Assembly (NCBI GenBank): GCA_005776395.1 | Contig: SXPJ01000003.1 | Location: 29,227 to 93,226, forward strand | Length of the DNA stretch: 64,000 nt | Direction: 5' to 3' | Origin: Bdellovibrionales bacterium | Lineage (GTDB): Bacteria > Bdellovibrionota > FAC87 > UBA2466 | Shown: in pieces, positions 3,353 through 62,282 of the stretch | How the letters are laid out: every line of letters starts with the position of its first letter | Position numbering within the stretch: the first letter of the stretch is position 1 | The notes under the pieces: generated by a model | Seen by the model: only the letters and a program-made list of their open reading frames with translations | Told to the model about the DNA's origin: nothing | Databases searched by the model: none | Made by a program: the position numbers and the translations under genes

Positions 3353-5686
3353 ATGAAAAATCAAGGAACGAAAATATCGGTTATCCAAGTGATAATGACC
3401 CTAGGGGTATGTTTAACCTTAATTTCATGTGCTAAAGGCGGTTCTCAGAGAAGCGCTGAAGAGTCTCTCGTCTTAGGCAATAGCACTTTTAATCCTGGCG
3501 AAAAGGCTCCTGGCGTCGAGCTTGAGCCTCAAAGCTCTAATTCGATTTTAGAGCAAAGCCAAGATGCTAATCTTGCCTCCTTTTCAGTTCTTTCACCTAG
3601 TGGAATTTCTGAGGGAGGTTACATTCCTGGCAGTGGTAGTGGAGGCGGAGGATCGGATAGTGGAAGCATTCCCCCTCCTGGTGGTGTAAGTAATCCCGTA
3701 AGCACCCCCTCAACAACAATTCCAAGTTCTAACACTGCAACTCCAAGTCCGTCTGAGCCTACAATCCCATCTGGAACTTCGAGCGATGTGAGTCCAAGTC
3801 CTACGACAGGGGATTCAAGTCAAGGAGGCAGCTCTTCAACAGTTTCCGACGGTACTAGTAGCTCGACCGATCTTTATCCTGGTGGAAACGATGGTGGAAT
3901 TATCCCCGGTTCAGGCACGGCTTCAGGTACAGATAATGGCTCTCTTCCTAATTCTGGCACCCCCTCGACAGGAGATGGGGGAAATACTCCAAGTTCAGGA
4001 ACAGGAGCTGTGGCCGATACTGGAACAGGATCTAGTTCAGGCTCCAGTTCAACTACCGATCAAAATTCAGGAACGACCCCTGGAACAGATTCTTCGACTA
4101 CAAATTCCGGCGGGTCCGATGTGAACTCAGGAGGTTCTACAGGTCCAGTTGCGGACAATGGAACTTTACCCAACTCTGGAACCCCAAGTGATTCAGGTAC
4201 AGATAATGGCTCTCTTCCTAATTCTGGCACCCCCTCGATAGGAGATGGGGGAAATACTCCAAGTTCAGGAACAGGAACTGTGGCCGATACTGGAACAGGA
4301 TCTACCTCTCCAAATCCAGGAACTTCGGGTGGGGAGACTCAAGTAATTTTATGCCACTATCCTCCAGGAAATCCTGCTAACAGCATTACTATCATTATTG
4401 GACAACCCGCTGTAACCGCACATTTAGCTCACGGGGATAAATTGGGTGATTGTCCTCCTAGCAATGGTTCCAGTGTTAATAACGGTGGAAATAATAATCC
4501 CAATCCAACTCCCCCTGTAACTCCAGATCCAGATTTAGATGATCACAATGATACCTGCTCGTGCCACCACTCAGTTCATCCCACTCCTTGTCAGCCAAAC
4601 AAGAAAAAACTGACAATTAATTTAGGGCGTGTTTGCAGTATAAGAAGATCGAAAACAAGTGATCTTTTCTTTGAAGAGGCTAAGAATCCGATTCTCTCAA
4701 TAGAAGCCATCGTTCCCAAAGGTAGAATCGCCTATGGAAGCCAATCTTCTAATCCTTATGCAACACTGTTTTTTTCCAGACAGCCTAATGCAACTCAACA
4801 ATGGGGAGTTCTCTCGGCCTCAAATCAAGCTAAAGAGAGAGTATTGATTGCGACCTTCAACTTAAAAGGTATTGATCTAGTTGGAAAGAAACAGAAGCGT
4901 TCAGCTGCATTTAATCTAAAGGAACTTAAAAAACAATTGGGAGGGGATTGGACAAAGGCCGCTATTGTAGCAAGTGTCTGCGATGATCCTAATAACGACG
5001 GAAGTTGTTACGCAACACCTAAGTCCAGTTTATTAAGTGTCGTTCCGGCTACATTTAAGGCTAATCGTGTTCCTTCTCAGGTAGGGCTTGATATTTGGAG
5101 TGGTCGCGGGCTATCGCAATCTCTCGACAGTACCAAATGCGATAAACAATATAGCCCCATTGTTCTTGATTTGACGGGGGAAGGGATTAAATTATCAGGT
5201 CCTGAAGAGGGATTAAAATTTGATCTTAATGCAGATGGAAATGAGATCTATACCGGTTGGATCAAAGGCACAAATAACGCCTTTCTAGTGCGAGATATTA
5301 ATCGTAACGGAAAGATTGATAGTGGAGCTGAACTCTTTGGTTCTGCCACATTACTAAAAAACAATAAACGGGCGGCTAACGGCTTTGAGGCCCTTAAAGA
5401 TCTTGATTCTAACGCTGACGGTCTACTAAGTCTTAAAGATCTTGAATGGAAGAGTTTACGACTCTGGTTTGATCGCAATTATGATGGGTTTAGTCAGTTT
5501 TCTGAACTAAATCGATTAGAACAGTACCAAATCCAATCGATCAATCTAAATTATGTAGAGCTCTTAGAAATGGATGAGTTCGGCAATCAAACCCGTGAAA
5601 GGTCAACCTATACACGTCGAATTGGAGGCAAAGATAAACCATTACTTGCTGTAGATGTATGGTTTAGAACGCTTATAGAGCAATAA
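3353..5686 (+). CDS. Large lipoprotein with a Ser/Thr/Gly/Pro-rich mucin-like linker and a C-terminal domain with EF-hand-like Ca-binding loops
   Basis: Lipobox LTLISC after a hydrophobic N-terminus. About 300 aa of low-complexity S/T/G/P repeats include two near-identical 112 bp DNA repeats. C-terminal loops DLNADGNEI, DINRNGKIDSGAE and DLDSNADGLLSLKD fit the EF-hand DxNxDGxIxxxE pattern. Confidence 0.6.
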   Translation: MKNQGTKISVIQVIMTLGVCLTLISCAKGGSQRSAEESLVLGNSTFNPGEKAPGVELEPQSSNSILEQSQDANLASFSVLSPSGISEGGYIPGSGSGGGGSDSGSIPPPGGVSNPVSTPSTTIPSSNTATPSPSEPTIPSGTSSDVSPSPTTGDSSQGGSSSTVSDGTSSSTDLYPGGNDGGIIPGSGTASGTDNGSLPNSGTPSTGDGGNTPSSGTGAVADTGTGSSSGSSSTTDQNSGTTPGTDSSTTNSGGSDVNSGGSTGPVADNGTLPNSGTPSDSGTDNGSLPNSGTPSIGDGGNTPSSGTGTVADTGTGSTSPNPGTSGGETQVILCHYPPGNPANSITIIIGQPAVTAHLAHGDKLGDCPPSNGSSVNNGGNNNPNPTPPVTPDPDLDDHNDTCSCHHSVHPTPCQPNKKKLTINLGRVCSIRRSKTSDLFFEEAKNPILSIEAIVPKGRIAYGSQSSNPYATLFFSRQPNATQQWGVLSASNQAKERVLIATFNLKGIDLVGKKQKRSAAFNLKELKKQLGGDWTKAAIVASVCDDPNNDGSCYATPKSSLLSVVPATFKANRVPSQVGLDIWSGRGLSQSLDSTKCDKQYSPIVLDLTGEGIKLSGPEEGLKFDLNADGNEIYTGWIKGTNNAFLVRDINRNGKIDSGAELFGSATLLKNNKRAANGFEALKDLDSNADGLLSLKDLEWKSLRLWFDRNYDGFSQFSELNRLEQYQIQSINLNYVELLEMDEFGNQTRERSTYTRRIGGKDKPLLAVDVWFRTLIEQ
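3922..4303. repeat. Two near-identical 112 bp direct repeats (3922-4033 and 4192-4303) inside the lipoprotein CDS, encoding GTDNGSLPNSGTPS(T/I)GDGGNTPSSGTG(A/T)VADTGTGS
   Basis: Direct reading: the two copies differ at 2-3 positions and are offset by 270 bp in frame. Confidence 0.8.
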
Positions 5687-5700
5687 GAGCTTAAGTTAAG

Positions 5701-5751
5701 AAGGCACTACACCTACGTAATGGCTAAGAAACTGTAAGTGTGTAGTGCCTT
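5701..5751 (+). other. Perfect 12 bp inverted repeat (AAGGCACTACAC ... GTGTAGTGCCTT) with a 27 nt loop, 15 bp after the lipoprotein stop
   Basis: Seen directly. No U-tract follows, so it is not a canonical intrinsic terminator. It could be an RNA stability element, a processing site or a protein-binding palindrome. Confidence 0.4.
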
Positions 5752-5992
5752 AAATTCCTTACCCTCTACCCTAGAATTAAGCCTGGTCCTTTACATAATG
5801 TTACTTATACGACGTAATAAAAAGAATAATAAAATCCTCATTACCAACCCTATAAAAATAGACCCTGTAAAATTTTAGGGGCTTAAAATCCTTCTAAGTT
5901 TAACAACTGATCCCATAAGAGTTATTGAATTAAGCTCTAGCATTGAATCCAATTAATTAAAGCGATAAATTTTAATTAATCAATTCTACTTT

Positions 5993-6340
5993 ATGAAACT
6001 TTGGGTTCTATTAAGTTTTTTGTTAGCTTTTTTTACTTCAATGGCAAAGCCCTGTTCTTGTGAATCTTTAATTATTAATACTGAACTCAAATCTAATGAA
6101 CATTCTTGTTGTCCAGAAAAAAAAAATATCAAGAGCGACCTGACTGAATCCTCTCAAAATTCACAGCTCCAATTTGAACATGCTTTTTCTTGTGTAAGTT
6201 TTTGTTGTGCCACTTTTAGTCACCGCGACAATGCAAATCTATTTTTTCATACTTTTTCCACGCAAGATTTCACTCATAAAATCCGATATCCTTATGTAGT
6301 TTTTTTACCCGTTCTTAAACGTCCCCCTCGAACGGTTTGA
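5993..6340 (+). CDS. Small secreted Cys-rich protein (CSC, HSCCPE and SCVSFCCATFSH motifs)
   Basis: Signal peptide MKLWVLLSFLLAFFTSMA. It sits in a very AT-rich islet and no homology is recognised. Confidence 0.35.
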   Translation: MKLWVLLSFLLAFFTSMAKPCSCESLIINTELKSNEHSCCPEKKNIKSDLTESSQNSQLQFEHAFSCVSFCCATFSHRDNANLFFHTFSTQDFTHKIRYPYVVFLPVLKRPPRTV

Positions 6341-6396
6341 TGTTTTTTTTAGCTTTATATAAACAACACATCGTTTAATTCCTTAAGGAGAAAATC

Positions 6397-6867
6397 ATGA
6401 ATTATATCATTCAATTACCAAGGCTATTAGCATTGCTTTTGGCCTTATCTGTTTCAACAAACACGCTAACAGCTCAAACCTTGAGTCACAAATCTGATTC
6501 GCAGGTTAAGCACTCTCATAAGACAGTTAAAAAGGTTAAGGCTGTGGAGGCTGGAAAATCTGACTGCCAGTGCGATTGTGACTCTTGTCAAGATGGCTCT
6601 TGCGATGATTGTGACTGTAACGGATGTGAGTGTTCTAAAGACAATGCTAAAGTAGGTTCTTGTCACGATTGCGATTGTGACCATTGCCAAAATGGCTCTT
6701 GCCATGACTGTGACTGCGGATGCGATTGTTCCCACGACACTTGCAAATCCGATAGCTGCTGCGATAACTGCAATTGCGGATGTGATTGCACTCAAGGTAG
6801 CTGTAACGACTGTGACTGTGATTGCGATCATTGTCACGACGGAAGTTGCACAGATAGCAAAGAGTAA
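6397..6867 (+). CDS. Secreted Cys/Asp/His-rich tandem-repeat protein (metallothionein-like, with about 40 Cys in the last 100 aa)
   Basis: Signal peptide, then a Lys/His-rich segment, then five or more GSC(H/D/N)DCDC repeats. The underlying DNA shows degenerate tandem repeats between 6560 and 6840. SD-like AAGGAG lies 8 nt upstream of the start. Confidence 0.55.
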   Translation: MNYIIQLPRLLALLLALSVSTNTLTAQTLSHKSDSQVKHSHKTVKKVKAVEAGKSDCQCDCDSCQDGSCDDCDCNGCECSKDNAKVGSCHDCDCDHCQNGSCHDCDCGCDCSHDTCKSDSCCDNCNCGCDCTQGSCNDCDCDCDHCHDGSCTDSKE

Positions 6868-6894
6868 TAAAGCGTTGCTTTAATAATAAAAATG

Positions 6895-6930
6895 AGAGCG
6901 AAGTAATCTCAATGGGGTTTACTTCGCTCT
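6895..6930. terminator. Bidirectional hairpin terminator between the convergent Cys-rich gene and tsaE
   Basis: A perfect 12 bp stem (AGAGCGAAGTAA / TTACTTCGCTCT) with a 12 nt loop. T-rich sequence follows on the minus strand (CATTTTTATTATT). Confidence 0.55.
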
Positions 6931-6932
6931 AC

Positions 6933-7385
6933 TTAAAGTATTTTATATCGTCGACAATTTTCTTCGATCTCGATTTTAATCTCTGCAGTTAATTTAAGTA
7001 TTTTCTTATCCACACACAACTCAGGCCATTCCACAAATAAAAACCCCTGATTCTTACGAACCTGTTCCACTATTTCATAATATTCCAAATCCACAAGCAT
7101 CATCTCTGTCACAGAGTCCATTCGATAAAGATCAAAATGATGAACCGGGGGAATTAACATTTCATAACTTTGATGAAGAACAAAAGAGGGGCTTATTACG
7201 CGGTCTATTTTAATATTCTTCTTTTGAGAAAGAACTTTTATGATGGCTCGAACAAGCGTGGTCTTTCCGCTCCCCAAGTCACCTGTAAGCCCAATGATTC
7301 CTCCCTTGGAAAAAAAAGTTAAAACCTCCTCTGCGAAAGAGTCTAAGGCATCGAGAGAAATTAAATTTGTAGTTTTTAACTTCAT
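6933..7385 (-). CDS. tsaE: tRNA threonylcarbamoyladenosine biosynthesis ATPase TsaE
   Basis: P-loop GDLGSGKTTLVRAI, about 150 aa. The start overlaps the nnr stop, the usual nnr-tsaE arrangement. Confidence 0.75.
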   Translation of the reverse strand: MKLKTTNLISLDALDSFAEEVLTFFSKGGIIGLTGDLGSGKTTLVRAIIKVLSQKKNIKIDRVISPSFVLHQSYEMLIPPVHHFDLYRMDSVTEMMLVDLEYYEIVEQVRKNQGFLFVEWPELCVDKKILKLTAEIKIEIEENCRRYKIL

Positions 7386-8911
7386 ATAGATTCCAATTCC
7401 TTTAAAACCTCAGGAATCTGTGAAACGAGATCAGAGACTATAGTAGAACGAGGATGACCAAAAATCTGAGTGACACGCTCAGAAACTTTACCGTGAATAT
7501 AAACTCCTAAAGGAATGCCTATTTCAGGTGTGAGCCCCTGAGCCATAAAAGCCCCCAAAATCCCCGATAAAAGATCCCCCGTACCCCCTTTTGAAAGGCC
7601 TGTATCTCCTGATGAGATTACAATACAAGGGGATGAGGGAAGCTTCACCAAAGTCCCCTTCCCTTTTAAGACAATCGTAACACCAAATTTCTCAGTAAGT
7701 TTTTGAATGCTTTTATATCTATCTTTTTCGATATCGATCACTTCTTCCCCGAGAAGTCGCCCCGCCTCTTTAGGGTGAGGAGTTAAAATCACCTGATCCG
7801 ATTTAGCTTTTTTAAGAATAGAAATGAACCTCTTTTGATTTTTTGCAATTAGATTTAAAGCATCTGCATCGAGAATACATTTCCAGTTGTTTTCTAGGGC
7901 TTTCTCAAAATACTTAAAGAACTTTTCCTGTTGTTTGTCCAAACCCATACCAGGCCCTTGGATCCAAATAGCTGTCTTAGTTTTAAATAATTTTTCGCTT
8001 ACAACTTCAGTCATCACCTCTGGGGGCAATCTTTTTCGAAGGGAATTGAGAGATTCTTTCTCCCCCACCACGGTAACAAGACCAGCCCCTGTTCTTAAAG
8101 CTCCTAAGCTAGCCAATATACAGCCCCCCTGTTTGTCCTCCTCTGATGCCCAAACATAGACATGACCATAAGTTCCTTTATGACTTGCTAGTCTTCTCTG
8201 GGGTAGTTTTTGGGCGTCTTCTAAACCATAAAGAAAAGCATCAACTTCAAAAGGGATTAACCTTGGAATTTGAATTGGCTCTAAAGTAAGTTGCCCGACA
8301 TAATCAGCAGAGGGACCCGTGACTAGACCTTGTTTAATAAATCCTAACGTCACTGTCTCAGAAGCCATGACAGAGGCTCCTATCGGATGACCCGTATCAC
8401 TATGAAGTCCACTGGGTACATCGATTGAAATAATCCATTTTTTTTTCTGATATTGATTGATCTTTTCAATCCACTGACGATAGGGCTCTTTAATTTCTCG
8501 AGACAATCCTGTTCCAAAAAAACCATCAACTATCCAATCACAGCCTTCAAACAACTCTGGATCAGGACTCTTTGGCCAAAAAACTGGAACCCCTAATCGA
8601 CTTAAAATTTCACTTTGAATTTTAGTGGAGAGAGAAAGATTCTTTTCAAATCCCACTAGCCCCACAAACACTCTTTTAAGCCCTAAAGAATCCAAGATCC
8701 TAGCGACAGCTAAAGCATCCCCACCCTTATTTCCAGTTCCCGCAAGAATAATTCCTCGGGTATGACTGAAGGTGTGACGAAATCTATTTTGAAGGGCCTT
8801 TACAACTCCGAGCGCCGCATGCTCCATTAACAATAGCTCAGGCAAACCCATTTCAGAGATCGTCCTGCGATCGATCTCCTGCATTTGTGAGGCTGTAACT
8901 AGAGGCTGCAT
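7382..8911 (-). CDS. nnr: Bifunctional NAD(P)H-hydrate epimerase and ADP-dependent dehydratase (Nnr)
   Basis: N-terminal YjeF_N-like region (GNKGGDALAVARIL) and a C-terminal carbohydrate-kinase-like dehydratase region (GDTGLSKGGTGDLLSG), 509 aa in total. Confidence 0.8.
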   Translation of the reverse strand: MQPLVTASQMQEIDRRTISEMGLPELLLMEHAALGVVKALQNRFRHTFSHTRGIILAGTGNKGGDALAVARILDSLGLKRVFVGLVGFEKNLSLSTKIQSEILSRLGVPVFWPKSPDPELFEGCDWIVDGFFGTGLSREIKEPYRQWIEKINQYQKKKWIISIDVPSGLHSDTGHPIGASVMASETVTLGFIKQGLVTGPSADYVGQLTLEPIQIPRLIPFEVDAFLYGLEDAQKLPQRRLASHKGTYGHVYVWASEEDKQGGCILASLGALRTGAGLVTVVGEKESLNSLRKRLPPEVMTEVVSEKLFKTKTAIWIQGPGMGLDKQQEKFFKYFEKALENNWKCILDADALNLIAKNQKRFISILKKAKSDQVILTPHPKEAGRLLGEEVIDIEKDRYKSIQKLTEKFGVTIVLKGKGTLVKLPSSPCIVISSGDTGLSKGGTGDLLSGILGAFMAQGLTPEIGIPLGVYIHGKVSERVTQIFGHPRSTIVSDLVSQIPEVLKELESI

Positions 8912-8926
8912 AAAGAAGTTGAGATT

Positions 8927-10300
8927 TTACCCTAACTGGGCACGAATACTTTGTGCGATATCCGAAGCATATTCTTTGATCTTACTGTAGTCTTCGCCCT
9001 CCACCATCACTCTCGCTAAAGGCTCAGTTCCTGAGTATCGCACTAAAACTCTTCCATTTTCCCCTAATGCATCTTCCACTTTTTTGATGGAATTAATGAT
9101 TTTAGGGAATCTTTCAAAAGCATCTTTTTGTTTCACTATGACATTTTCCAAAACCTGAGGATACTGTGTCATCTGTCGTTTAAGTTCAGATAGTTTTTTA
9201 CCGGTCTTCTTCATGATAGAGAGAATTTTTAATGCAGCCATCATCCCATCACCGGTAGTATTGTGTTCTAAGAAAACCAAGTGCCCCGATTGTTCGCCAC
9301 CTAGGTTAAGATTTTCTTTTCTCATCATCTCAACAATATACCTGTCTCCTACTTGAGCATGAATTACTTGGCCTCCTGCTCGTTTCATTGCAACAGTAAG
9401 CCCCATATTGCTCATTGCAGTTGTGACAAGGGTATTTTTATTTAAGGTTCCCTCTCTCAACATATGTAAAGCACAAATGGCCATAATCTGATCGCCATCA
9501 ACCACTTCACCATTTTCATCAGATAAAATACACCGATCAGCATCCCCATCTAAAGCAATTCCAATTTCAGCGCGATGTTCGTGAACCGCTTTGCACATAG
9601 CCTGAGGATAGACGGCGCCACATTGATCATTGATATTTTCCCCATTAGGCTGGTTATTGATAGTAAAGACTTCAGCCCCCAGCTCCTCAAATACAATAGG
9701 GGCTACCTTATAAGCGGCTCCATTGGCACAATCCAAAACAACGCGAATCCCATCTAAAGTTTGCTCCTGAGGAAAGGTATCTTTGATATAAACAATGTAC
9801 CTTCCACTAGCATCTTCAATCCGTTTGGCTGTACCAATAAAATCCATGGTCGGGCGATATCGATTGAGTTCATCAGAGAACATTACCTGCTCAATCTCTT
9901 TTTCAGTGGTATCTGGAAGTTTGTAGCCCTGACGATCAAAAATCTTAATTCCATTATAGTGATAGGGATTATGACTGGCTGAAATAATCACACCTGCATC
10001 AGCTCTCATGCTTCTAGTGATAAAAGCGATTCCAGGGGTTGGAAGTGGCCCTACTAAGAAGACCTTGGCCCCCATGGAGCAAAACCCAGCGGATAAAGCA
10101 TTTTCCAGCATGTAGCCCGATCGTCTAGTATCTTTTCCAATAACGACTTTAGTATTTTTAGGGAGTCCACGATTGTCTTTTTGACAGAAAAGATAGGCGG
10201 TAGCCCTGCCAATAGCCATGGCGATTTCACTGGTCATGGGGTGCTGATTAGCTATTCCACGAACCCCATCGGTACCAAATAATTTGCTTTCCTTCGCCAT
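8927..10300 (-). CDS. glmM: Phosphoglucosamine mutase
   Basis: Active-site Ser motif GVIISASHNPYHYNGIK and alpha-D-phosphohexomutase architecture, 457 aa. Confidence 0.9.
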   Translation of the reverse strand: MAKESKLFGTDGVRGIANQHPMTSEIAMAIGRATAYLFCQKDNRGLPKNTKVVIGKDTRRSGYMLENALSAGFCSMGAKVFLVGPLPTPGIAFITRSMRADAGVIISASHNPYHYNGIKIFDRQGYKLPDTTEKEIEQVMFSDELNRYRPTMDFIGTAKRIEDASGRYIVYIKDTFPQEQTLDGIRVVLDCANGAAYKVAPIVFEELGAEVFTINNQPNGENINDQCGAVYPQAMCKAVHEHRAEIGIALDGDADRCILSDENGEVVDGDQIMAICALHMLREGTLNKNTLVTTAMSNMGLTVAMKRAGGQVIHAQVGDRYIVEMMRKENLNLGGEQSGHLVFLEHNTTGDGMMAALKILSIMKKTGKKLSELKRQMTQYPQVLENVIVKQKDAFERFPKIINSIKKVEDALGENGRVLVRYSGTEPLARVMVEGEDYSKIKEYASDIAQSIRAQLG

Positions 10301-39959: not shown

Positions 39960-41357
39960 TTATGCCTCTTGAAAGGCTCTTCTTAAAAGCGGAATCAAGT
40001 CTATTTGAATTAATCTCTTAGCTTTCACTAAATCGACTTCACAAGCCTCTTTGATTCCACTGCACAACTCAGACAAAATTTCATCCTCTAACTTACCCGC
40101 TTCAAGTGCGATGCGATAGGGAATCCGACTAAACGATACCAAACGGTAACGCGACATATATTCCCCTGGGAATTCTTTCTCAAGTATCTTCTCAACCTCT
40201 TTCGCCATTAAAAATGGTTTATCCGCAACTTTATCCCGCATCTCCACAAAATTATTGACTGCGAGATCTGCAATCGCATCCCCATTGGGTTTTCTACTCT
40301 TGCTAAACTCTTCAAACAATGGGCCCCAGGAAATCTTTTTTAAATCAGGGGCTGCTTTTAAAATCATATTCCATAAAACTGCCACATCTTCAAATCCACA
40401 GTTCATCCCCTGCCCAAAAAATGGAACAATCGCATGAGCGGCATCTCCTAAAAGCACTACGTCATCCGAATGGTGCCAAGGATAGGCCTTAACTGTCACC
40501 ATTTGCCCCGTAGGATGAGTTATAAATTGTTCAACAAAATCTGGGATAAGGGGCACCACATCAGGGAACTGCTCTCTAAAAAAGGCTTCAATTTTCTCTT
40601 GGCTATTTAAGGTCTCAAAACTTAGCGACCCCTGATTAGAAAGAAATAACGTACAGGTAAAACTTCCTTCGTAGTTAGGCAGTGCAATAAGCATGTAGGA
40701 TCCCCGTGGCCAGATATGAAGCCCATGCTTTTCCATCTTAAAGCTACCGTGAGGTCCGCAAGCCATATTTAACTCTTTATAACCATGGCTTAACAAAGAC
40801 TCAGATTCTTCATGCCCGAAATCATCTCTCAAGGTGTGCCGTAGGACCGAAGCTGAACCATCGGTCCCAAACACCCTAACAAAAGGAGTTGTAATCTCTT
40901 TTTGTGTTTTATCGTTTTGAAAACTTAAAGTTTTCTTATCTAGATCCGCTTTAATCAATTTTTCCTGGAAATGAATTTTTACCTTTTCAGTAGATTCCGC
41001 ATAGGTCATCAGCATCTTATTCAATTCCCCTCTGGAAATAGAATAGATACATTCTGAATCGTCTTTCCCATAGCGCTGAAATACCGTTGGACCCGAAATA
41101 GGATGAATAATCCTCCCTGGCATCGCAATGGCTTTAGTCATGATCTGCTCATGAACTCCTAGCTTCTCTAAGGCGTAGAGTCCTCTCACTGACATCGCGA
41201 GATTAATAGATCTACCAGCGCTAATAGCCTCTTTTCTCATGTCGACACGACGCTCAAATAGATCAACCTCAAATCCTAGTTTTGCAAGAACAGTGGCCAG
41301 TAATGAACCTACTAAACCCGCCCCTACAACTGTCATTTTTGAGTCGTTATTTGACAT
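39960..41357 (-). CDS. kmo: Kynurenine 3-monooxygenase (FAD-dependent)
   Basis: FAD-binding N-terminus MTVVGAGLVGSLLATVLAKLGFEVDLFERR and the class A flavoprotein monooxygenase GD/DG motifs (LLGDAAHAIVPFFGQG), 465 aa. Confidence 0.85.
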   Translation of the reverse strand: MSNNDSKMTVVGAGLVGSLLATVLAKLGFEVDLFERRVDMRKEAISAGRSINLAMSVRGLYALEKLGVHEQIMTKAIAMPGRIIHPISGPTVFQRYGKDDSECIYSISRGELNKMLMTYAESTEKVKIHFQEKLIKADLDKKTLSFQNDKTQKEITTPFVRVFGTDGSASVLRHTLRDDFGHEESESLLSHGYKELNMACGPHGSFKMEKHGLHIWPRGSYMLIALPNYEGSFTCTLFLSNQGSLSFETLNSQEKIEAFFREQFPDVVPLIPDFVEQFITHPTGQMVTVKAYPWHHSDDVVLLGDAAHAIVPFFGQGMNCGFEDVAVLWNMILKAAPDLKKISWGPLFEEFSKSRKPNGDAIADLAVNNFVEMRDKVADKPFLMAKEVEKILEKEFPGEYMSRYRLVSFSRIPYRIALEAGKLEDEILSELCSGIKEACEVDLVKAKRLIQIDLIPLLRRAFQEA

Positions 41358-42621
41358 GTTTTTTTAATATCTCGCACAGTTCAAAAACATCTTGAAAGCT
41401 ATTATAGAGTGGCACAGGTGCAAACCTTAAAACTCCCGGCTCTCGATAATCGCACACAACCCCTTCTTCGCTTAATTTTTTCATTACTGCTTTACCTGTT
41501 TTTCCGAACTCTAAAGAAAGGGCACATCCTCGTTCCTTGGGAGTTGAAGGGGTCAGAATCTTTACCAACTTAAATTCATCCTGTTTTAATAAGGCTTCAA
41601 AGTAGTGAGTAAGAAGTTCACTTTTTCTTCTTAGATTAGCCATACCTACTTCATCGAAAATCTCCATTGAAGCTCTTAGAGTTGCCATGGGCAAAATAGG
41701 AGGATTACTCAATTGCCACCCCTCAGCTCCTGCCATCGGTCGAAACTCAGGCTCCATCAAAAACCGTTTTACTTTATCGTGCCCCCACCAGCCTTCAAGA
41801 CGAGGACGACTAAACTCTTCGGCGTGTCGCTCATGGACAAAGCAACCGCCTAAAGCCCCTGGACCTGCATTTAAATATTTATAAGAACACCAAACAGCGA
41901 AATCAACTTTGTCATCATGAAGTTGAAGCTCTAAATTTCCAGCCCCATGGGCCAAATCTACTCCAAATATAATTTGTTGAGTATGCGCTAGAGTCGCAAT
42001 CTCTTTAAGAGGAAAAGCTTGTCCTGTTCGATAGTTCACATCTCCAAGTAAAACAAGTGCAATGGAATCTCCTTCCGCCTGAATCAGCTCCTCAAGATCA
42101 CGAATATTTAAAAGGGTTTCATTCGGACGGGGACGCCATTCCAGAATAGTCTCTTTAGGATCCAACCCGTGAAGTTTTGCATGAGAAGCCACCGCATATT
42201 GATCCGAAGGGAAAGCACCTGCTTCGATCACAATTTTATATTTTTTCTTTGTAGGACGATAAAAGGAGATAAGCATTAAGTGAAGATTAACGGTAAGTGT
42301 ATTCATTACCACCACTTCAAGGGGTTTAGCCCCTACCAGTCGCGCCGTCGAATCGGTTAGAAACTCATGATAGGGATACCAGGGATGTTTTCCAACTTGA
42401 TGCCCCTCTACCGCAAGAGTTTCCCAATCATTTAAAACCTCATCTACATAGGCTCTGGCTTTTTTAGGCTGAAGTCCTAGAGAATTACCCACAAAATAGA
42501 GAACATTTCGCCCATCCTTTTGTTTGGGAAAATAGAATTGCTCTCGATACTTCTTTAGAGGATCAGCCGCATCCATTTTCGTCGCATAAGCAGCCCCTAA
42601 TTCAAATTGAGTCTCTTTCAC
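41347..42621 (-). CDS. kynU: Kynureninase (PLP-dependent)
   Basis: Aminotransferase class V fold with the kynureninase pattern (YLNAGPGA, conserved Lys region SYKYLN), 424 aa. Overlaps the kmo start. Confidence 0.85.
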   Translation of the reverse strand: MKETQFELGAAYATKMDAADPLKKYREQFYFPKQKDGRNVLYFVGNSLGLQPKKARAYVDEVLNDWETLAVEGHQVGKHPWYPYHEFLTDSTARLVGAKPLEVVVMNTLTVNLHLMLISFYRPTKKKYKIVIEAGAFPSDQYAVASHAKLHGLDPKETILEWRPRPNETLLNIRDLEELIQAEGDSIALVLLGDVNYRTGQAFPLKEIATLAHTQQIIFGVDLAHGAGNLELQLHDDKVDFAVWCSYKYLNAGPGALGGCFVHERHAEEFSRPRLEGWWGHDKVKRFLMEPEFRPMAGAEGWQLSNPPILPMATLRASMEIFDEVGMANLRRKSELLTHYFEALLKQDEFKLVKILTPSTPKERGCALSLEFGKTGKAVMKKLSEEGVVCDYREPGVLRFAPVPLYNSFQDVFELCEILKKHVK

Positions 42622-43635
42622 CTATTTAAACCTCTCCTTGGTGAGCCCCAACCATTGGAGAGCATTCATTCCCAACAGTTTCTGTCTTAATTGGGGCTTT
42701 AATCCCTTGATAGACTCAATAAGTCCCCCAGGATCAGACTCTCCAAGAGGAAAAGGATAATCGCTTCCCATAGAGACTTTATCTTCCCCAAAAGTCTGCA
42801 TAATATAGAGAAGAGCCATGGGATCATGAACTAAGGAATCGACCCAAAACTTCCCAAGATACTCTCGAGGATTAATTCGATTATCTAAGGCGCAAAGATC
42901 TGGCCTCACAAGCCAGCCCTGCTCTACTCTTCCTATAGTGATAGGAAACGCTCCACCTCCGTGAGCAAATGCCACTCGAAGATTAGGCAATCGCTCAAAA
43001 ACACCTCCGAAAATCATTGAACAAATCGCAAGAGAAACCTCGGCCGGCATTCCCACAAGCCACGGAAGCCAATACTTGGGCATTCGGTCCGTGCCCATCA
43101 TTTCCCAGGGATGAACAAAGATAGCAGCCCCCAATTTCTCTGCCTCTTGAAAAACAGGGAAAAGTTCACGGTGTTCCAAATTCCATTGATTAACATGTGA
43201 ACCAATTTGAATTCCGCATAGGCCAAGATCTTTAATACACCGATTAAGTTCCTGAATGGCTAATCCAGGATCTTGCATAGGAAGAGTTCCCAGCCCCACA
43301 AACCGCTTCGGATATTGAGCCACAACTCCAGCTATGTGATCATTTAAATATTTAGCAATCTCAAGATTATCTTTACCAGGGATTGCGTAATTAAACATAA
43401 CTGGAACTGTCGAAAGGACTTGGACATCCACATTGCTAGCCTTAGCCTCTTCGATCCTTTTTTCAGGATCCCAACAATTACTTTCAATGTCTCTAAAAAA
43501 CCTTCCATCATCCCAGAGCATTTTTGCAGAGCAGGTCGAAGTTTTAGCCAGTTCAATAAAACCCCCATACCCAAACCTCTTTTTAAAACTGGGAATTTCT
43601 GGAGGTAAAATATGGGTATGGATATCGATTTTCAT
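42622..43635 (-). CDS. 2-amino-3-carboxymuconate-6-semialdehyde decarboxylase (ACMSD, amidohydrolase-2 family)
   Basis: N-terminal metal-binding MKIDIHTHILP and the amidohydrolase_2 TIM barrel, 337 aa. Encoded in the operon between haaO and kynU. Confidence 0.7.
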   Translation of the reverse strand: MKIDIHTHILPPEIPSFKKRFGYGGFIELAKTSTCSAKMLWDDGRFFRDIESNCWDPEKRIEEAKASNVDVQVLSTVPVMFNYAIPGKDNLEIAKYLNDHIAGVVAQYPKRFVGLGTLPMQDPGLAIQELNRCIKDLGLCGIQIGSHVNQWNLEHRELFPVFQEAEKLGAAIFVHPWEMMGTDRMPKYWLPWLVGMPAEVSLAICSMIFGGVFERLPNLRVAFAHGGGAFPITIGRVEQGWLVRPDLCALDNRINPREYLGKFWVDSLVHDPMALLYIMQTFGEDKVSMGSDYPFPLGESDPGGLIESIKGLKPQLRQKLLGMNALQWLGLTKERFK

Positions 43636-44138
43636 TTTTTAGAATGGCCCCGGCCACATTTAGAACAGATCGTAGCTTTGGGATTAGAATAAAACCTATC
43701 AAAAACAGGTGGCAGATCTTTTACAATATCTGTCACGTAAAGAAACTCTTCGAAAAGTTTATGATTGCAGCTTTCGCAAAACCAAACAAACCCATCTTTT
43801 TCATTAGGCCATCGTTTTCTCTCAATAACTAAACCTACGCTATTAATAGGTCGCCTAGGAGAATGGGGAACCTTAGGAGGAAGTAAAAAGATCTCTCCAG
43901 CTTTGATAGGAAAATCGATAAATTCCCCCTGCTCTACCATCTTCAAGTTCATTTCTCCTTCTAATTGATAGAAGAACTCTTCCCCTTGATTGATATGGTA
44001 ATCGGCACGGCTATTAGGCCCCCCTACAATCGTAATCATAAACTCTCGATCGAGCCAAATCTGCTGATTCCCTACTGGAGGCTTAAGAAGAGCTCGATTA
44101 TCTGAGATCCATTTTTGTAAATTAATTGGGGGGAACAC
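43632..44138 (-). CDS. haaO: 3-hydroxyanthranilate 3,4-dioxygenase (cupin) with a C-terminal rubredoxin-like Cys4 site
   Basis: Cupin core VGGPNSRADYHINQGEEFFYQLEG, with C-terminal CESC…CSKC. Confidence 0.8.
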   Translation of the reverse strand: MFPPINLQKWISDNRALLKPPVGNQQIWLDREFMITIVGGPNSRADYHINQGEEFFYQLEGEMNLKMVEQGEFIDFPIKAGEIFLLPPKVPHSPRRPINSVGLVIERKRWPNEKDGFVWFCESCNHKLFEEFLYVTDIVKDLPPVFDRFYSNPKATICSKCGRGHSKK

Positions 44139-55839: not shown

Positions 55840-55912
55840 GGCTGGGTAGCTCAGTCGGTAGAGCAAGGGAATCATAATCCTTTGGTCGGGGGTTCAAATC
55901 CCTCCCCAGCTA
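55840..55912 (+). tRNA. tRNA with CAU anticodon (elongator Met, or Ile2 if lysidinylated)
   Basis: A cloverleaf was built by hand: acceptor GGCTGGG/CCCAGCT (G1-U72), D-arm GCTC/GAGC, anticodon stem AGGGA/TCCTT with loop ATCATAA, T-arm GGGGG-TTCAAAT-CCCTC, discriminator A, and no encoded CCA. Only 2 G-C pairs at the base of the anticodon stem argue against initiator identity. tilS is present in the window. A T-run follows the gene. Confidence 0.8.
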
Positions 55913-56940: not shown

Positions 56941-57378
56941 CTATCTCGTTGTCTCCGGCACAGTCATAAACTCAAAACTCACCCAATTCTTAATACGCTG
57001 AAAATCCGAAACATTCTCCGTAATCAACATCGCGTTATTTTCCTTCGCACTGAGTGCAATGAGAATATCCCACGTAAGTCGCCGGCGTGGTTTTGGTTCA
57101 AAGCGATGTTTTTTCTGCATTTGCGACATTAACTGGCCTGCTACTACAAACTGGTCATCTTGCATTCCAATTAGAGGAAATGATTTTTGGTGTTGGCGCA
57201 AAATATTTTCTTCGATACTTGTTTTTGCTCCTGCCCAGAGTTCCATTAGGATTATCTTATTCATAGTGTAGAGAAAGCCGCCACGTAGTAACGGTTCAAG
57301 TCGTTTTTGGTAGACTGGATCTCTAAGTAAATTAATGTAAACGTTAGAGTCAAAAAATAGGAGTTCAGCTTTCTTCAT
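56941..57378 (-). CDS. vapC: PIN-domain toxin VapC
   Basis: LLFFDSNVYINLL carries the first acidic residue and LITENVSDF is a distal acidic motif. It is about 145 aa from the internal Met MKKAELL. Its start overlaps the antitoxin gene end. Confidence 0.65.
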   Translation of the reverse strand: MKKAELLFFDSNVYINLLRDPVYQKRLEPLLRGGFLYTMNKIILMELWAGAKTSIEENILRQHQKSFPLIGMQDDQFVVAGQLMSQMQKKHRFEPKPRRRLTWDILIALSAKENNAMLITENVSDFQRIKNWVSFEFMTVPETTR

Positions 57379-57559
57379 CGAAGCCTTCCCATTTGCTTTT
57401 TCCCGTTGTTTTACGAAAAAGATCAATTGCCTGACGATTATTAATGAGATTCGTCAACGCTTTTTCGACTGTTGCTGTAGTCTCATCTTCGCCAAGTACT
57501 TTTTTGGCCTGTTCGAGAATTTCTTTATCCAATCGCATATTCACGCTTTGTTTAGCCAT
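57365..57559 (-). CDS. vapB: VapB-type antitoxin
   Basis: MAKQSVNMRLDKEILEQAKK has the MRxxLDxELL pattern of VapB-like antitoxins, 64 aa from the ATG at 57559. The track ORF begins at an upstream GTG. Confidence 0.6.
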   Translation of the reverse strand: MAKQSVNMRLDKEILEQAKKVLGEDETTATVEKALTNLINNRQAIDLFRKTTGKSKWEGFDEES

Positions 57560-58798: not shown

Positions 58799-60199
58799 TT
58801 AATACCTATAAGAATCTGCCTTATAAGGTCCGTTAACCGAAACCCCAATGTACTTAGATTGATCTTCTCTCAGCACAGTAAGTTCAGCATTTAGCTTTTT
58901 AAGTTGGAGCCTGGCCACCTTTTCATCCAAGTGTTTGGGCAGAGTATAAACCCCTAGTGGATATTTGGAGGTATGGCTGTAGAGTTCAATCTGCGCAATG
59001 GTTTGGTTAGCAAAAGAAGAAGACATTACATAACTAGGATGTCCTGTTCCGCAACCTAAGTTCACTAAGCGCCCCTTAGCTAGTAGAATGATTCTCTTCC
59101 CGTTGGGAAAGATCACGTGATCCACTTGAGGTTTGATCTCCTCCCATTTGTATTTTTCAAGAGAGGCTACATCAATCTCATTATCAAAATGGCCAATGTT
59201 ACAAACAATTGCTTGATCCTTCATTTTAGCCATGTGGTCATGAGTAATTACGTTGAAGTTCCCTGTGCAGGTCACAAAGATATCTGCTTTATCATCAGCA
59301 TAATCCATAGTCACAACTCGGTAGCCTTCCATTGCCGCTTGCAATGCACAGATAGGATCAACCTCTGTGACCCAAACTTGAGCAGAAAGAGCTCTTAAAG
59401 CTTGAGTTGATCCCTTTCCCACATCTCCATATCCACAAACAACAGCCACTTTGCCCGCTATCATCACATCTGTTGCACGCTTAATACCGTCGACAAGAGA
59501 TTCACGACATCCATAAAGATTATCAAACTTGGATTTAGTTACAGAGTCATTTACGTTAATTGCAGGAAATTTCAGTTCGCCTCGAGCATGCATTTGAATC
59601 AATCGATGAACACCAGTAGTAGTCTCTTCGGTAACCCCTTTAATATGTGAAAGACGAGTAGAATACCAAGTGCGATCTACTGCCAATTTATTTTTAATAG
59701 CCGCAAATAGAACGGTCTCCTCTTCTGACGTCGGCTTTGAAAGAACACTGATATCTTTTTCAGCCTTGGCTCCTAAGTGCAATAGAAGAGTCGCATCTCC
59801 GCCATCATCCAAAATCATGTTTGAATATCCACCTTCGGTCCATTCGAAAATACGGTGAGTGTAATCCCAGTACTCAGCCAAAGTTTCCCCTTTAACTGCA
59901 AAAACCGGAACTCCACTAGCAGCCACCGCTGCAGCTGCATGATCCTGAGTTGAAAAGATGTTACAAGATGCCCAACGAACTTTAGCTCCCAAAGCCGTCA
60001 ATGTTCGAATAAGAACCGCAGTCTGAATAGTCATGTGTAAAGAGCCTGTAATTCTAGCTCCTTTAAGAGGTTGAGAAACCGCAAACTCTTCTCGAATGGC
60101 CATAAGTCCTGGCATTTCGGTTTCAGCAATTTTTATCTCCCTATGGCCCCAATCTGCAAGACTCATATCGGCAACGACATAATCATTTACACTGTGCAT
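58799..60199 (-). CDS. ahcY: Adenosylhomocysteinase
   Basis: NAD-binding and substrate motifs of S-adenosyl-L-homocysteine hydrolase. The preferred start is the second ATG at 60199 ([18 protein letters not shown]), which is preceded by AGGAG. The track start at 60223 lacks an SD. Confidence 0.9.
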
Positions 60200-60297
60200 A
60201 TTCTTCTCCTGTTTCTTATTCATTTTTAAAATTTAAAATCGAGGAATCACGGAAGGTGAACACTCACCGACTCTCTTCGTCATTCTCACGATTAGTT

Positions 60298-60364
60298 CAG
60301 TAAGCGCCGTTTTTCAATTTTTAATCCAAGCCTAGGGCAGAAGATGCCTTGCAGCGCTCCTTGG
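60298..60364 (-). promoter_or_regulatory. SAH (S-adenosylhomocysteine) riboswitch in the ahcY 5' leader
   Basis: Minus-strand RNA reads CCAAGGAGCGCUGCAAGGCAUCUUCUGCCCUAGGCUUGG…AACGGCGCUUAC. The conserved blocks AGGAGCGCUGC and AACGGCGCU are both exact. The P1 stem CCAAG/CUUGG and the P2 hairpin are consistent with the family fold. Confidence 0.65.
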
Positions 60365-60449
60365 GATTACTTCTTAGACTAGATGAAATTCTTATGTTTT
60401 TCCATGGGTTTTTAAGAGAAACTAAAAGGCTAAGAAATCTAGGTGTTTT

Positions 60450-61094: not shown

Positions 61095-62282
61095 TTAGGA
61101 GAGTGGGGAGGTCGCTTCCTCAACCCCATAGTCCACTAAAAAAGCTGCCGAGTTTTTTAAATCCTCTCGTCGTTTATCGTACCTTTGAATCATTAGCGGA
61201 GTAGACCATCCCGCCAGATGCTGAACCGACCTTTGAGTTGCCTTTCGATCAAGCGCATTGGAGATACAGGTAGCTCGACAGGAGTGAGGCGAAATTTTTT
61301 TTAAGATGCCGGCCTTTTTAGCATAGTGAATAACCATATAGGTGATCGCATGCGGATGCATTTTCTTAACAAGTTCCCCTGAGACCGGATTCTTAGTGGG
61401 AGTAAACATAGGCTCTTCTGTTCTCATTTTATCTCGTCGACAGGCGAAAAAATAATGGTCCAAGGATTGCTTCATTTGGACTGTGAGAGGCAATATTCTA
61501 ATTCGATGCCCTTTCCCACGCACTTTTAATACCGTAACCCCCCTCTCCTCGGTTAAATCCCCCATTTTCAAATTCAAGAGCTCACTTTTTCTTAACCCCA
61601 GATAGAGAAGGACATGAAGGACTGCTGAATGCAAAGCCCCTGCCCTTGTGTTTCGCTTGGGTAAATTCAAAATTTTACGGGCCTCATCATCTGAGAGCCC
61701 TTTTAAAGAAGACTCTTGGCTTTGAGGAAATCCTTTCACAAGCTGCGCGGGATTATCTCTAATAATCTGATTAACCTTAAGCCAATTTAGAAAACTTTTA
61801 ACCACTGCCAATTTTCGATTTACAGTGCTCTTCTCCATGATTTTTCCATTAAGACGCCCCTCTTCTAGATACTTTCTAAAAAGAATGATGTGATCTGGCT
61901 TTAAAGATTCAATTTCCCTGGCATTAATTCGCCCCTCCAAAAACTGAAAAAACTGTTTCAGATCTGTTTCGTAAGATCTTCGCGTATGCTCACTTAACTG
62001 ATTGGCCAAAAAGGTAGGAATTTCTCTAGCCCATTCTGGTAACGAAACCCTATCTTTTTGATGTTGCGAATAGTCATCTGAAGAGACAGACCCAACAAGG
62101 CTCTTCAGGCTCACCTCATTATTTGCTTTATAAACGCTTGAAACATTCCGACCTAGGGTAAGGGCCCTATTTTTCTCTATATCTGAAGAGAGTTTAAACC
62201 ATTTCTTCTCAGAATGGTTTTTTAACCATCTAGAGGACCAAAGGGCTAATTTAAAGACAAGTTGTTCGACTAGATGCTTCAT
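61095..62282 (-). CDS. Tyrosine site-specific recombinase/integrase (phage-integrase family) with a roughly 100 aa N-terminal extension
   Basis: Core-binding-like segment HTRRSYETDLKQF. The catalytic residues are R (LGLRKSE), K (KGHRIRILPL), HxxR (HSCRAT) and the H/W…Y box (HLAGWSTPLMIQRYDK). It is 395 aa. Confidence 0.7.
   Translation of the reverse strand: MKHLVEQLVFKLALWSSRWLKNHSEKKWFKLSSDIEKNRALTLGRNVSSVYKANNEVSLKSLVGSVSSDDYSQHQKDRVSLPEWAREIPTFLANQLSEHTRRSYETDLKQFFQFLEGRINAREIESLKPDHIILFRKYLEEGRLNGKIMEKSTVNRKLAVVKSFLNWLKVNQIIRDNPAQLVKGFPQSQESSLKGLSDDEARKILNLPKRNTRAGALHSAVLHVLLYLGLRKSELLNLKMGDLTEERGVTVLKVRGKGHRIRILPLTVQMKQSLDHYFFACRRDKMRTEEPMFTPTKNPVSGELVKKMHPHAITYMVIHYAKKAGILKKISPHSCRATCISNALDRKATQRSVQHLAGWSTPLMIQRYDKRREDLKNSAAFLVDYGVEEATSPLS

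Follow-up and report, generated by a model that had tools for sequence, protein, structure and literature searches.

A 64,000-nucleotide stretch of contig SXPJ01000003.1 (positions 29,227 to 93,226, forward strand; assembly GCA_005776395.1) from a Bdellovibrionales bacterium, referred to here as the window, contains an islet of ~1.05-1.1 kb (5816-6932) lying between a predicted dif site, at which XerC and XerD resolve chromosome dimers, and the stop codon of tsaE. Two open reading frames (ORFs) are located in the islet. The second, ORF2 (6397-6867, + strand), appears in the window's ORF list with an ATG start and a length of 156 aa, and encodes a cysteine-, aspartate- and histidine-rich repeat protein with a signal-peptide-like N-terminus. 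The evidence below makes it very likely that this DNA was inserted next to dif in one lineage, and likely that ORF2 specifies a real exported protein. That ORF2, lying beside dif, encodes a Sec-exported thiolate metal sponge is a statement that, taken whole and with metal binding included, we put forward tentatively, at somewhat short of an even chance.

The ORF2 product can be divided into three parts. Residues 1 to ~26 (6397-6474) bear out the signal peptide proposed in an initial annotation of this DNA: the N-terminus, MNYIIQLPRLLALLLALSVSTNTLTAQT, is Sec-like, with a positively charged Arg9 followed by a hydrophobic core from Leu10 to Val19 (Kyte-Doolittle maximum 2.9) and small residues at two plausible signal peptidase I sites, one between SVS and T and the other between LTA and Q. 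Neither a lipobox nor a twin-arginine motif was evident on inspection of the N-terminal sequence, and the signal peptide call itself was made by reading the sequence. Residues 27-56 (6475-6564) form a basic linker of Lys, Ser and His (isoelectric point (pI) 9.9), and residues 57-156 (6565-6864) form an acidic Cys/Asp/His domain with a pI of 4.05. These last 100 residues consist of 31 Cys, 23 Asp, 11 Ser, 8 Gly, 6 Asn, 6 His, 4 Gln, 4 Lys, 3 Thr, 2 Glu, 1 Ala and 1 Val. The Cys fraction is thus 31%, not the ~40% estimated initially, and Asp plus His account for 29 of the 69 other residues, the largest share but not the majority that had been described. Since ordinary window genes average 1.2% Cys, the enrichment is nevertheless far above chance. 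The domain contains no Phe, Trp, Tyr or Met, the single Ala and Val are its only aliphatic residues, and no aromatic residue (Phe, Trp or Tyr) occurs anywhere past the signal peptide. The mature protein (~13.8 kDa, of which the Cys domain makes up 10.5 kDa) is 24% Cys.

The cysteines are mostly spaced 2-3 residues apart and include one CC and nine CxC matches that do not overlap (overlapping ones would raise the count). Four full GSC[D/H/N]DCDC motifs begin at residues 67, 87, 100 and 134, and a partial motif, GSCTD, at residue 149, so the count falls short of the five or more full copies given in the initial annotation. Its description of a tandem-repeat protein holds at the protein level, where the domain is organized as three ~33-aa units, but does not extend to the DNA: Tandem Repeats Finder detected no DNA tandem array within ORF2, in which a 47-nt stretch recurs 99 nt further on with 87% identity.

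Several features favor translation of ORF2. The Shine-Dalgarno (SD) sequence AAGGAG (6385-6390, + strand), located 6 nt 5' of the ATG, is among the strongest of the 51 ORFs compared, about half of which have any SD match. Among the four full motif copies, the conserved codons vary at all seven third positions (7/7) versus only 2 of 14 first and second positions, both of the latter from serine codons switching between TCT and AGC (Fisher p = 3e-4). Between the copies that begin at residues 87 and 100, one codon is the same and the other seven differ synonymously. Across the domain 84% of third positions are T or C, which keeps Cys (TGY) and Asp (GAY), and T/C changes in the repeats would be nonsynonymous in both other open frames. 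Because the motif copies vary almost only synonymously, translation in the ORF2 frame is favored. A codon-usage score trained on 32 window genes and compared with stop-free shadow ORFs points the same way for the nonrepetitive first 56 codons, which score best in their own frame, where they fall among the lowest-scoring real genes and exceed 98% of shadow ORFs. In public assemblies, gene callers predict exactly ORF2 on four contigs. A perfect 12-bp-stem hairpin (6895-6930) lies between the convergent ORF2 and tsaE genes, has a T-rich tail on the minus strand, and is probably a bidirectional terminator for both. Upstream of ORF2, a weak sigma-70-like promoter match (TTTCCA-16-TAAAAT, 6255-6282, + strand) agrees at 9/12 positions, and matches of this type are not commoner here than in shuffled sequence.

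Other observations weaken or limit the case for translation. The synonymous-site argument is partly circular because the GSCxDCDC motif was defined at the protein level. Two other frames are open across the repeat, one of 68 aa (+) and one of 123 aa (-). The Cys domain scores poorly for codon usage, within the shadow-ORF range, as is expected for any Cys/Asp repeat. Finally, ORF2 is identical on all five contigs that carry it (the window and four others, L007-L010), and for this reason there is no variation from which selection could be measured; these five independent contigs were also checked for the length polymorphism of the DNA repeat that the initial annotation had suggested looking for between strains, and none was seen.

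If ORF2 were a chance or decaying reading frame within junk DNA of the terminus (a degenerate TGYGAY-type repeat, for instance, that had remained open by accident), and ORF1 were spurious as well, this would explain why three of six frames are open over the repeat and why the Cys domain scores like a shadow ORF. The orphan status of ORF2, its absence from all relatives, the lack of an SD site and borderline codon score of ORF1, and the missing exact ORF2 sequence in a clustered protein collection (see below) also fit this explanation. It accommodates less well the strong and well-spaced SD, the in-frame fusion of a nonrepetitive signal peptide, the hairpin past the ORF2 stop, and repeat variation confined to positions where a change is silent in this frame and no other, and a young microsatellite would show the DNA-level tandem array that is missing here. 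We consider it unlikely that ORF2 is such an ORF; if it is not expressed, it is merely an odd reading frame in terminus junk DNA. On the sequence evidence ORF2 is quite probably a real gene, and most likely a real but lineage-restricted (orphan) one.

The first ORF of the islet, ORF1 (5993-6340, + strand, 115 aa), agrees with the initial description of a second signal-peptide protein upstream of ORF2: it has a signal-like N-terminus and seven Cys arranged in CxC, CC and CxxxCC motifs. It has no SD site by the same 51-ORF comparison, and its codon score lies between those of shadow ORFs and real genes. ORF1 is predicted as a gene in public assemblies, and a word-indexed protein search returned only the match to itself. 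From these features the chance that ORF1 is a genuine gene appears about even.

Searches for homologues were uniformly unproductive, in keeping with the initial statement that ORF2 belongs to no described family. Scans of ORF1 and ORF2 against Pfam, NCBIfam, PHROGs and PADLOC gave no credible match; the E-values below 1 were weak and compositional only (0.52 for ORF2 with an unrelated NCBIfam family and 0.034 for ORF1 with one PHROG). A PDB sequence search with ORF2 was empty at E <= 10, a word-indexed homology search returned no match, and phmmer against 1.84 billion representative proteins gave 0 matches, not even ORF2 itself, although a local phmmer self-test of ORF2 scores 327 bits. The exact ORF2 sequence is absent from the clustered protein collection despite the gene calls on four contigs. 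Very low-complexity proteins of this kind may be under-represented in such collections, and because this one omits ORF2 itself, the protein-database negatives are weaker than they look. At the nucleotide level, tblastn and blastn searches of phages and plasmids with the ORFs and the islet found nothing. DNA-level scans were made with the patterns SC[DHN]DCDC and [DNQ]GSC[DHN]DCD: a viral scan gave 23 pattern matches, none of which was confirmed, and a JGI metagenome scan with the second pattern gave 116, of which the only one confirmed came from the same organism. A scan of genome contigs anchored on the neighboring Nnr protein retrieved distant genomes only (<= 35% identity). A likeness to LDL-receptor class A or myxococcal Cys-rich repeats was considered and rejected: the DGS motif is common to them, but ORF2 gives no Pfam match.

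The composition of ORF2 suggests how the protein might function. By definition, metallothioneins are small proteins rich in Cys whose thiolates form clusters with metal (PMC7558416), and by sequence ORF2 has the corresponding features: it is small and Cys-rich, with CxC, CxxC and CC clusters and no aromatic residues. The window is assigned to a Gram-negative organism because it carries heptosyltransferase and Kdo transferase genes, and a substrate of Sec and signal peptidase I would therefore reach the periplasm or beyond. We propose that ORF2 would be exported through Sec and its signal peptide removed by signal peptidase I, leaving a mature protein, probably disordered, that consists of a short basic linker followed by the very acidic 100-residue domain. 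In the periplasm or outside the cell, the mature protein would act as a thiolate metal sponge that could bind Zn, Cd or Cu, either in the manner of a metallothionein or as a gene-encoded (Asp-Cys)n binder resembling phytochelatins. Mammalian metallothioneins use ~2.9 Cys per divalent ion. By that ratio the 31 Cys of ORF2 could hold about ten Zn or Cd ions, or a larger number of Cu(I) ions. Divalent metals are hinted at by the amounts of His and Asp. The anatomy and composition of the ORF, selection on its Cys-encoding frame, its absence from relatives and its dif and terminus setting are taken as shown; that the protein is exported, is disordered and binds metal, and which metals it prefers, are all inferred. 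AlphaFold2 run on the single sequence gave a predicted local distance difference test score (pLDDT) of 43.5, with almost no helix and no confident fold, a result that is uninformative, though compatible with a disordered chain like that of an apo-metallothionein.

The metal-sponge reading must be set against several points. Neither a metal-sensing regulator, an efflux pump, a Dsb-type or other thiol-disulfide gene nor a maturase was found within 8 kb of ORF2 or among ~45 window ORFs. An oxidizing periplasm would push 31 closely spaced thiols toward disulfides. The AlphaFold2 model offers no confident structure on which to build. Conservation does not extend beyond one population, since ORF2 has no homologue in the searches made, and a one-population gene may be young or nonfunctional.

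The first two of these points bear directly on another explanation, in which ORF2 serves the envelope as a structural, adhesive or redox-buffering protein rich in disulfides, its cysteines being cross-linked after export rather than ligating metal. This would presumably be something like the small cysteine-rich envelope proteins of chlamydiae. The Sec signal sends ORF2 into a compartment that is normally oxidizing, its odd number of cysteines means that one thiol or more stays unpaired and available for bonds between molecules, and the lack of metal-homeostasis genes over the interval and ORFs just described fits as well. Cysteines placed every 2-3 residues with no hydrophobic core residues are, however, a poor base for a disulfide-stabilized fold, the modeling produced no fold, and the strongly acidic, His-containing domain is suited to cation binding. 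We rate the disulfide explanation as improbable, on a par with the decaying-ORF explanation above. The most specific form of the metal-sponge proposal, that ORF2 is a Sec-exported, gene-encoded (Asp-Cys)n metallothionein unrelated to known ones and captured beside dif as a minimal cassette, is likewise doubtful. If it is true, ORF2 would be the first exported metallothionein from a bacterium and would parallel, in nature, the synthetic phytochelatins used for bioremediation. Should ORF2 prove to be expressed and to bind metal, it would show that bacteria can deploy a metallothionein-type thiolate sponge outside the cytoplasm without modifying enzymes, and would offer a compact natural scaffold for metal capture with ~31 thiols in 10.5 kDa.

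The location of the islet was defined by the intergenic site at 5788-5815 (- strand), which we identify from its sequence and context as dif, a predicted XerC/XerD site at the replication terminus. On the minus strand the 28-nt site, ACGTCGTATAAGTAACATTATGTAAAGG, reads ACGTCGTATAA-GTAACA-TTATGTAAAGG (XerC arm, center and XerD arm), and thus has the 11-6-11 layout and inner ATAA...TTATG palindrome of known dif sites. It is identical at 22/28 positions to the dif of Geobacter sulfurreducens (ACGTCCCATAAGATATATTATGTAAAGT) and at 21/28 to that of Bdellovibrio bacteriovorus HD100, both published in Table 1 of PMC2731167, and is the single best match in the 64 kb to each of them (the next best has 18). 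No second copy of the 28-nt sequence occurs in the window. The XerD arm and inner positions are the best-conserved parts of dif sites (PMC2731167), and the XerD arm here, TTATGTAAAGG, matches the Geobacter arm at 10/11 positions. Published dif sites are also intergenic and low in GC (guanine plus cytosine) content, coincide with the maximum of cumulative GC skew and have variable flanks (PMC2731167). GC skew in the window is positive to the left of the site, where only ~5.7 kb of the left arm is visible, turns negative at ~5-6 kb and stays negative over the remaining 58 kb, and the flanking genes converge on 5788-5815.

The site is also conserved. Relatives were found through the neighboring Nnr protein (68-78% identity) and their contigs compared for gene order. 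In their short spacer a 25-28-nt site is invariant and its surroundings are unalignable. Counting the more distant contigs, dif is identical or nearly so in seven relatives whose Nnr proteins are 48-78% identical: L011 (~10055-10082), L013 (~3421-3448), L014 (~7985-8012), L015 (~7568-7595), L017 (~2216-2243), L018 (8035-8062) and L019 (7997-8024). The last two, with Nnr proteins of 48-49% identity, match at 23/28 and 21/28 positions, respectively. A promoter and a small RNA were considered as identities of the conserved 28-nt site and rejected in favor of dif; Rfam and RNAalifold applied to the conserved intergenic motif gave no RNA family and no covarying structure. The dif location places the replication terminus of this uncultured lineage, whose nearest likeness is to metagenome-assembled genomes labelled Bdellovibrionota or Deltaproteobacteria.

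Comparison with the same relatives shows what is peculiar to the window. Their common gene order is ftsH-cdaA-ybbR-glmM-nnr-tsaE, convergent with a gene for a lipoprotein with a self-processing module (SPM) and followed by a VWA-like gene, PilZ and TPR. In the relatives with 68-78% Nnr identity only 87-208 bp separate tsaE from the SPM gene. Between dif and the tsaE stop lie 1117 nt in the window versus 41-100 nt in the seven relatives, and ORF1 and ORF2 are absent from all seven syntenic loci. The additional DNA begins on the XerC-arm side of dif, ~12 nt or less from the arm, with that short flank common to the relatives, and blastn and tblastn detected no similarity between it and phages, plasmids, other parts of the window or the corresponding loci of the relatives. 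The two distant relatives maintain synteny but carry lineage-specific genes of other kinds, placed between dif and the SPM gene. In L018 (8089-9899, - strand) these encode proteins of 200 and 398 aa, and in L019 (8018-9332, + strand) a 141-aa lipoprotein-like protein and a 254-aa Flg_new_2 protein containing 10 Cys; the genes of both relatives are uncharacterized, signal-peptide-bearing and orphan-like. The cargo typical of this dif flank seems to be secreted orphan proteins. Because the relatives are without the two ORFs and the distant ones have other cargo, we conclude that 5816-6932 is very likely a lineage-specific insertion at a hot spot in the terminus. These dif flanks, which gather varied lineage-specific genes, are useful for studying how orphan genes originate at the terminus or come to settle there.

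Base composition provides a less direct indication of acquisition. The AT-rich islet of the initial annotation is real over 5687-6396 (the intergenic DNA and ORF1), where the GC fraction of 0.323 is lower than in any other 700-nt stretch of the window (mean for 700 nt, 0.409; sd, 0.027), but does not include ORF2, whose GC fraction of 0.437 is above the window average. Codon choice in ORF2 (TGC 52%, GAC 44%) also departs from that of the host (TGT 64%, GAT 80%). The proposal that the DNA was acquired is strongly supported by the seven syntenic relatives without ORF1 and ORF2 and by dif and the terminus being a recurrent insertion spot, and this synteny and dif context back it better than base composition does.

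One specific origin for the insertion would be a remnant of an IMEX, an integrative mobile element integrated at dif through XerC/XerD. IMEXs integrate at dif by means of a dif mimic and end up between two dif-like sites (PMC9765430). The islet resembles them in its insertion at dif (which it directly adjoins apart from the short shared flank), its absence from close relatives, and the variable cargo that other lineages carry beside the same dif. A weak dif-like 28-mer in the same orientation is present at the far junction (6926-6953). This sequence matches at only 15/28 positions, however, a chance level at which ~200 matches occur in the window, and it overlaps conserved Arg-x-Tyr codons (Arg-Arg-Tyr here) at the tsaE 3' end. 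In the left dif neither arm differs from that of the dif in close relatives, and the islet contains no replication, Xer-activating or phage genes and shows no phage or plasmid similarity. Because neither a second dif-like site above chance level nor mobility genes were found, the islet cannot be called an IMEX, and we consider an IMEX remnant decidedly unlikely.

The genes that flank dif and the islet are conserved. On the left is the SPM lipoprotein gene (3353-5686, + strand, 777 aa), which has a low-complexity Ser/Gly/Thr/Pro region and a C-terminal FrpC-type module, matches PF26745 (SPM) and FrpC in PDB 6sjw (E 1.3e-31), and is syntenic in all relatives. Its C-terminal domain (~5150-5640) is a homologue of the module with which Neisseria FrpC processes itself in a Ca-dependent manner. 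At the position of the cleavable Asp-Pro bond of FrpC, the clade keeps C(D/E)(K/R)QY-Ser-Pro (window, L011, L013 and L018), and its module may be a noncleaving or differently cleaving variant. Within the same gene, at 3900-4310, ~113-nt direct repeats of ~96-98% identity encode NGSLPNSGTPS...GDGGNTPSSGTG segments. The window and L007 differ at only four positions (4228, 4230, 4237 and 4239), all in the 113-nt repeat, and these could reflect real polymorphism or an assembly ambiguity. Just past the stop codon of the SPM gene is a hairpin with a perfect 12-bp stem (5701-5751, + strand), probably its terminator; relatives have GC-rich hairpins at the same place. On the right, tsaE (6933-7385, - strand) is the last gene of the ftsH-cdaA-ybbR-glmM-nnr-tsaE block.

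Three other features of the window were recorded. An S-adenosylhomocysteine (SAH) riboswitch (RF01057, 52 bits; 60295-60368, - strand) lies upstream of an S-adenosylhomocysteine hydrolase gene (58799-60223, - strand), which is the expected arrangement. A kynurenine-pathway cluster (39960-44138, - strand) encodes a flavin adenine dinucleotide (FAD) monooxygenase, kynureninase, an amidohydrolase and 3-hydroxyanthranilate dioxygenase, and suggests an aerobic de novo route from tryptophan to nicotinamide adenine dinucleotide (NAD). De novo NAD synthesis from tryptophan is uncommon in bacteria. A 394-aa tyrosine recombinase (61095-62282, - strand) with Phage_integrase and SAM-like N domains is encoded a few kb from a tRNA gene (55840-55912, + strand) and a PIN-domain gene (56941-57426); this region may be an integrated element, or the protein may be a Xer-like recombinase.

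Returning to ORF2 as a putative exported metal sponge, its closest formal parallels are the metallothioneins, including bacterial SmtA/BmtA and MymT, with which it shares small size, CxC, CxxC and CC motifs, some His, a lack of aromatic residues and probable disorder in the apo form. It differs from them in its 23% Asp, present in alternating Asp-Cys runs, and in its three-unit internal repeat. Since none of the metallothionein models in Pfam or NCBIfam matches it, ORF2 falls outside the SmtA/BmtA family. The initial annotation fairly stated that known bacterial metallothioneins are cytoplasmic; the described ones are cytosolic, whereas ORF2 has a Sec signal peptide. Its further statement, that exported metal-ligand-rich repeat proteins of this type are undescribed as a family, is incomplete, given that Tat-exported Csp1 and the periplasmic PcoE/SilE sponges (PMC7558416) and the Sec-exported bufferins (PMC11626156) are known exported metal binders, though none of them is related to ORF2.

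A second parallel is with phytochelatins and the synthetic (Glu-Cys)n peptides such as EC11 and EC20, designed metal binders that have been displayed outside the cytoplasm for Cd, Zn and Cu (PMC4292183). Like them, ORF2 alternates an acidic residue with Cys and so provides both thiolate and carboxylate ligands. In nature, phytochelatins are assembled by enzymes through gamma-Glu links, whereas ORF2 is gene-encoded; compared with the (Glu-Cys)n peptides, it has Asp in place of Glu, irregular spacing, and GSC and His positions.

Among the known exported metal binders, the bufferins BufA1/BufA2 are like ORF2 in its predicted export and use of Cys: they carry a Sec signal, depend on Cys, reside in the periplasm and are proposed to buffer excess metal (PMC11626156). 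It is nonetheless very unlikely that ORF2 is a bufferin-like precursor of a metallophore of the RiPP type (peptides made by ribosomes and modified after translation), with its Cys converted to thiooxazoles or similar groups by enzymes encoded elsewhere, for while bufferin precursors are also Sec-signal, Cys-containing proteins (80-120 aa) that chelate periplasmic copper (PMC11626156), they have 4, 6 or 12 conserved Cys versus 31 in ORF2, no MNIO (DUF692), DUF2063 or radical-SAM gene was found within 8 kb or among the window ORFs scanned, and the islet consists of two ORFs with no enzyme gene. Bufferins need adjacent MNIO and DUF2063 genes and a DUF2282 or BUF_6/12Cys signature, and because ORF2 has neither such neighbors nor these or any other family signature, it is not classed with them. 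In Csp1, Cys thiolates likewise soak up many ions, but they do so inside a rigid four-helix bundle that is exported by Tat and holds 13 Cu(I) sites. ORF2 lacks a twin-arginine motif, predicted helices and a family match, and the first two of these absences set it apart from Csp1. PcoE/SilE are disordered sponges that use Met and His, and ORF2 is distinguished from them because its domain lacks Met. Judged by analogy, ORF2 would work like these exported metal buffers yet be unrelated to all of them and, if the metal-sponge reading is true, would stand as a fourth solution next to Csp1, PcoE/SilE and the bufferins.

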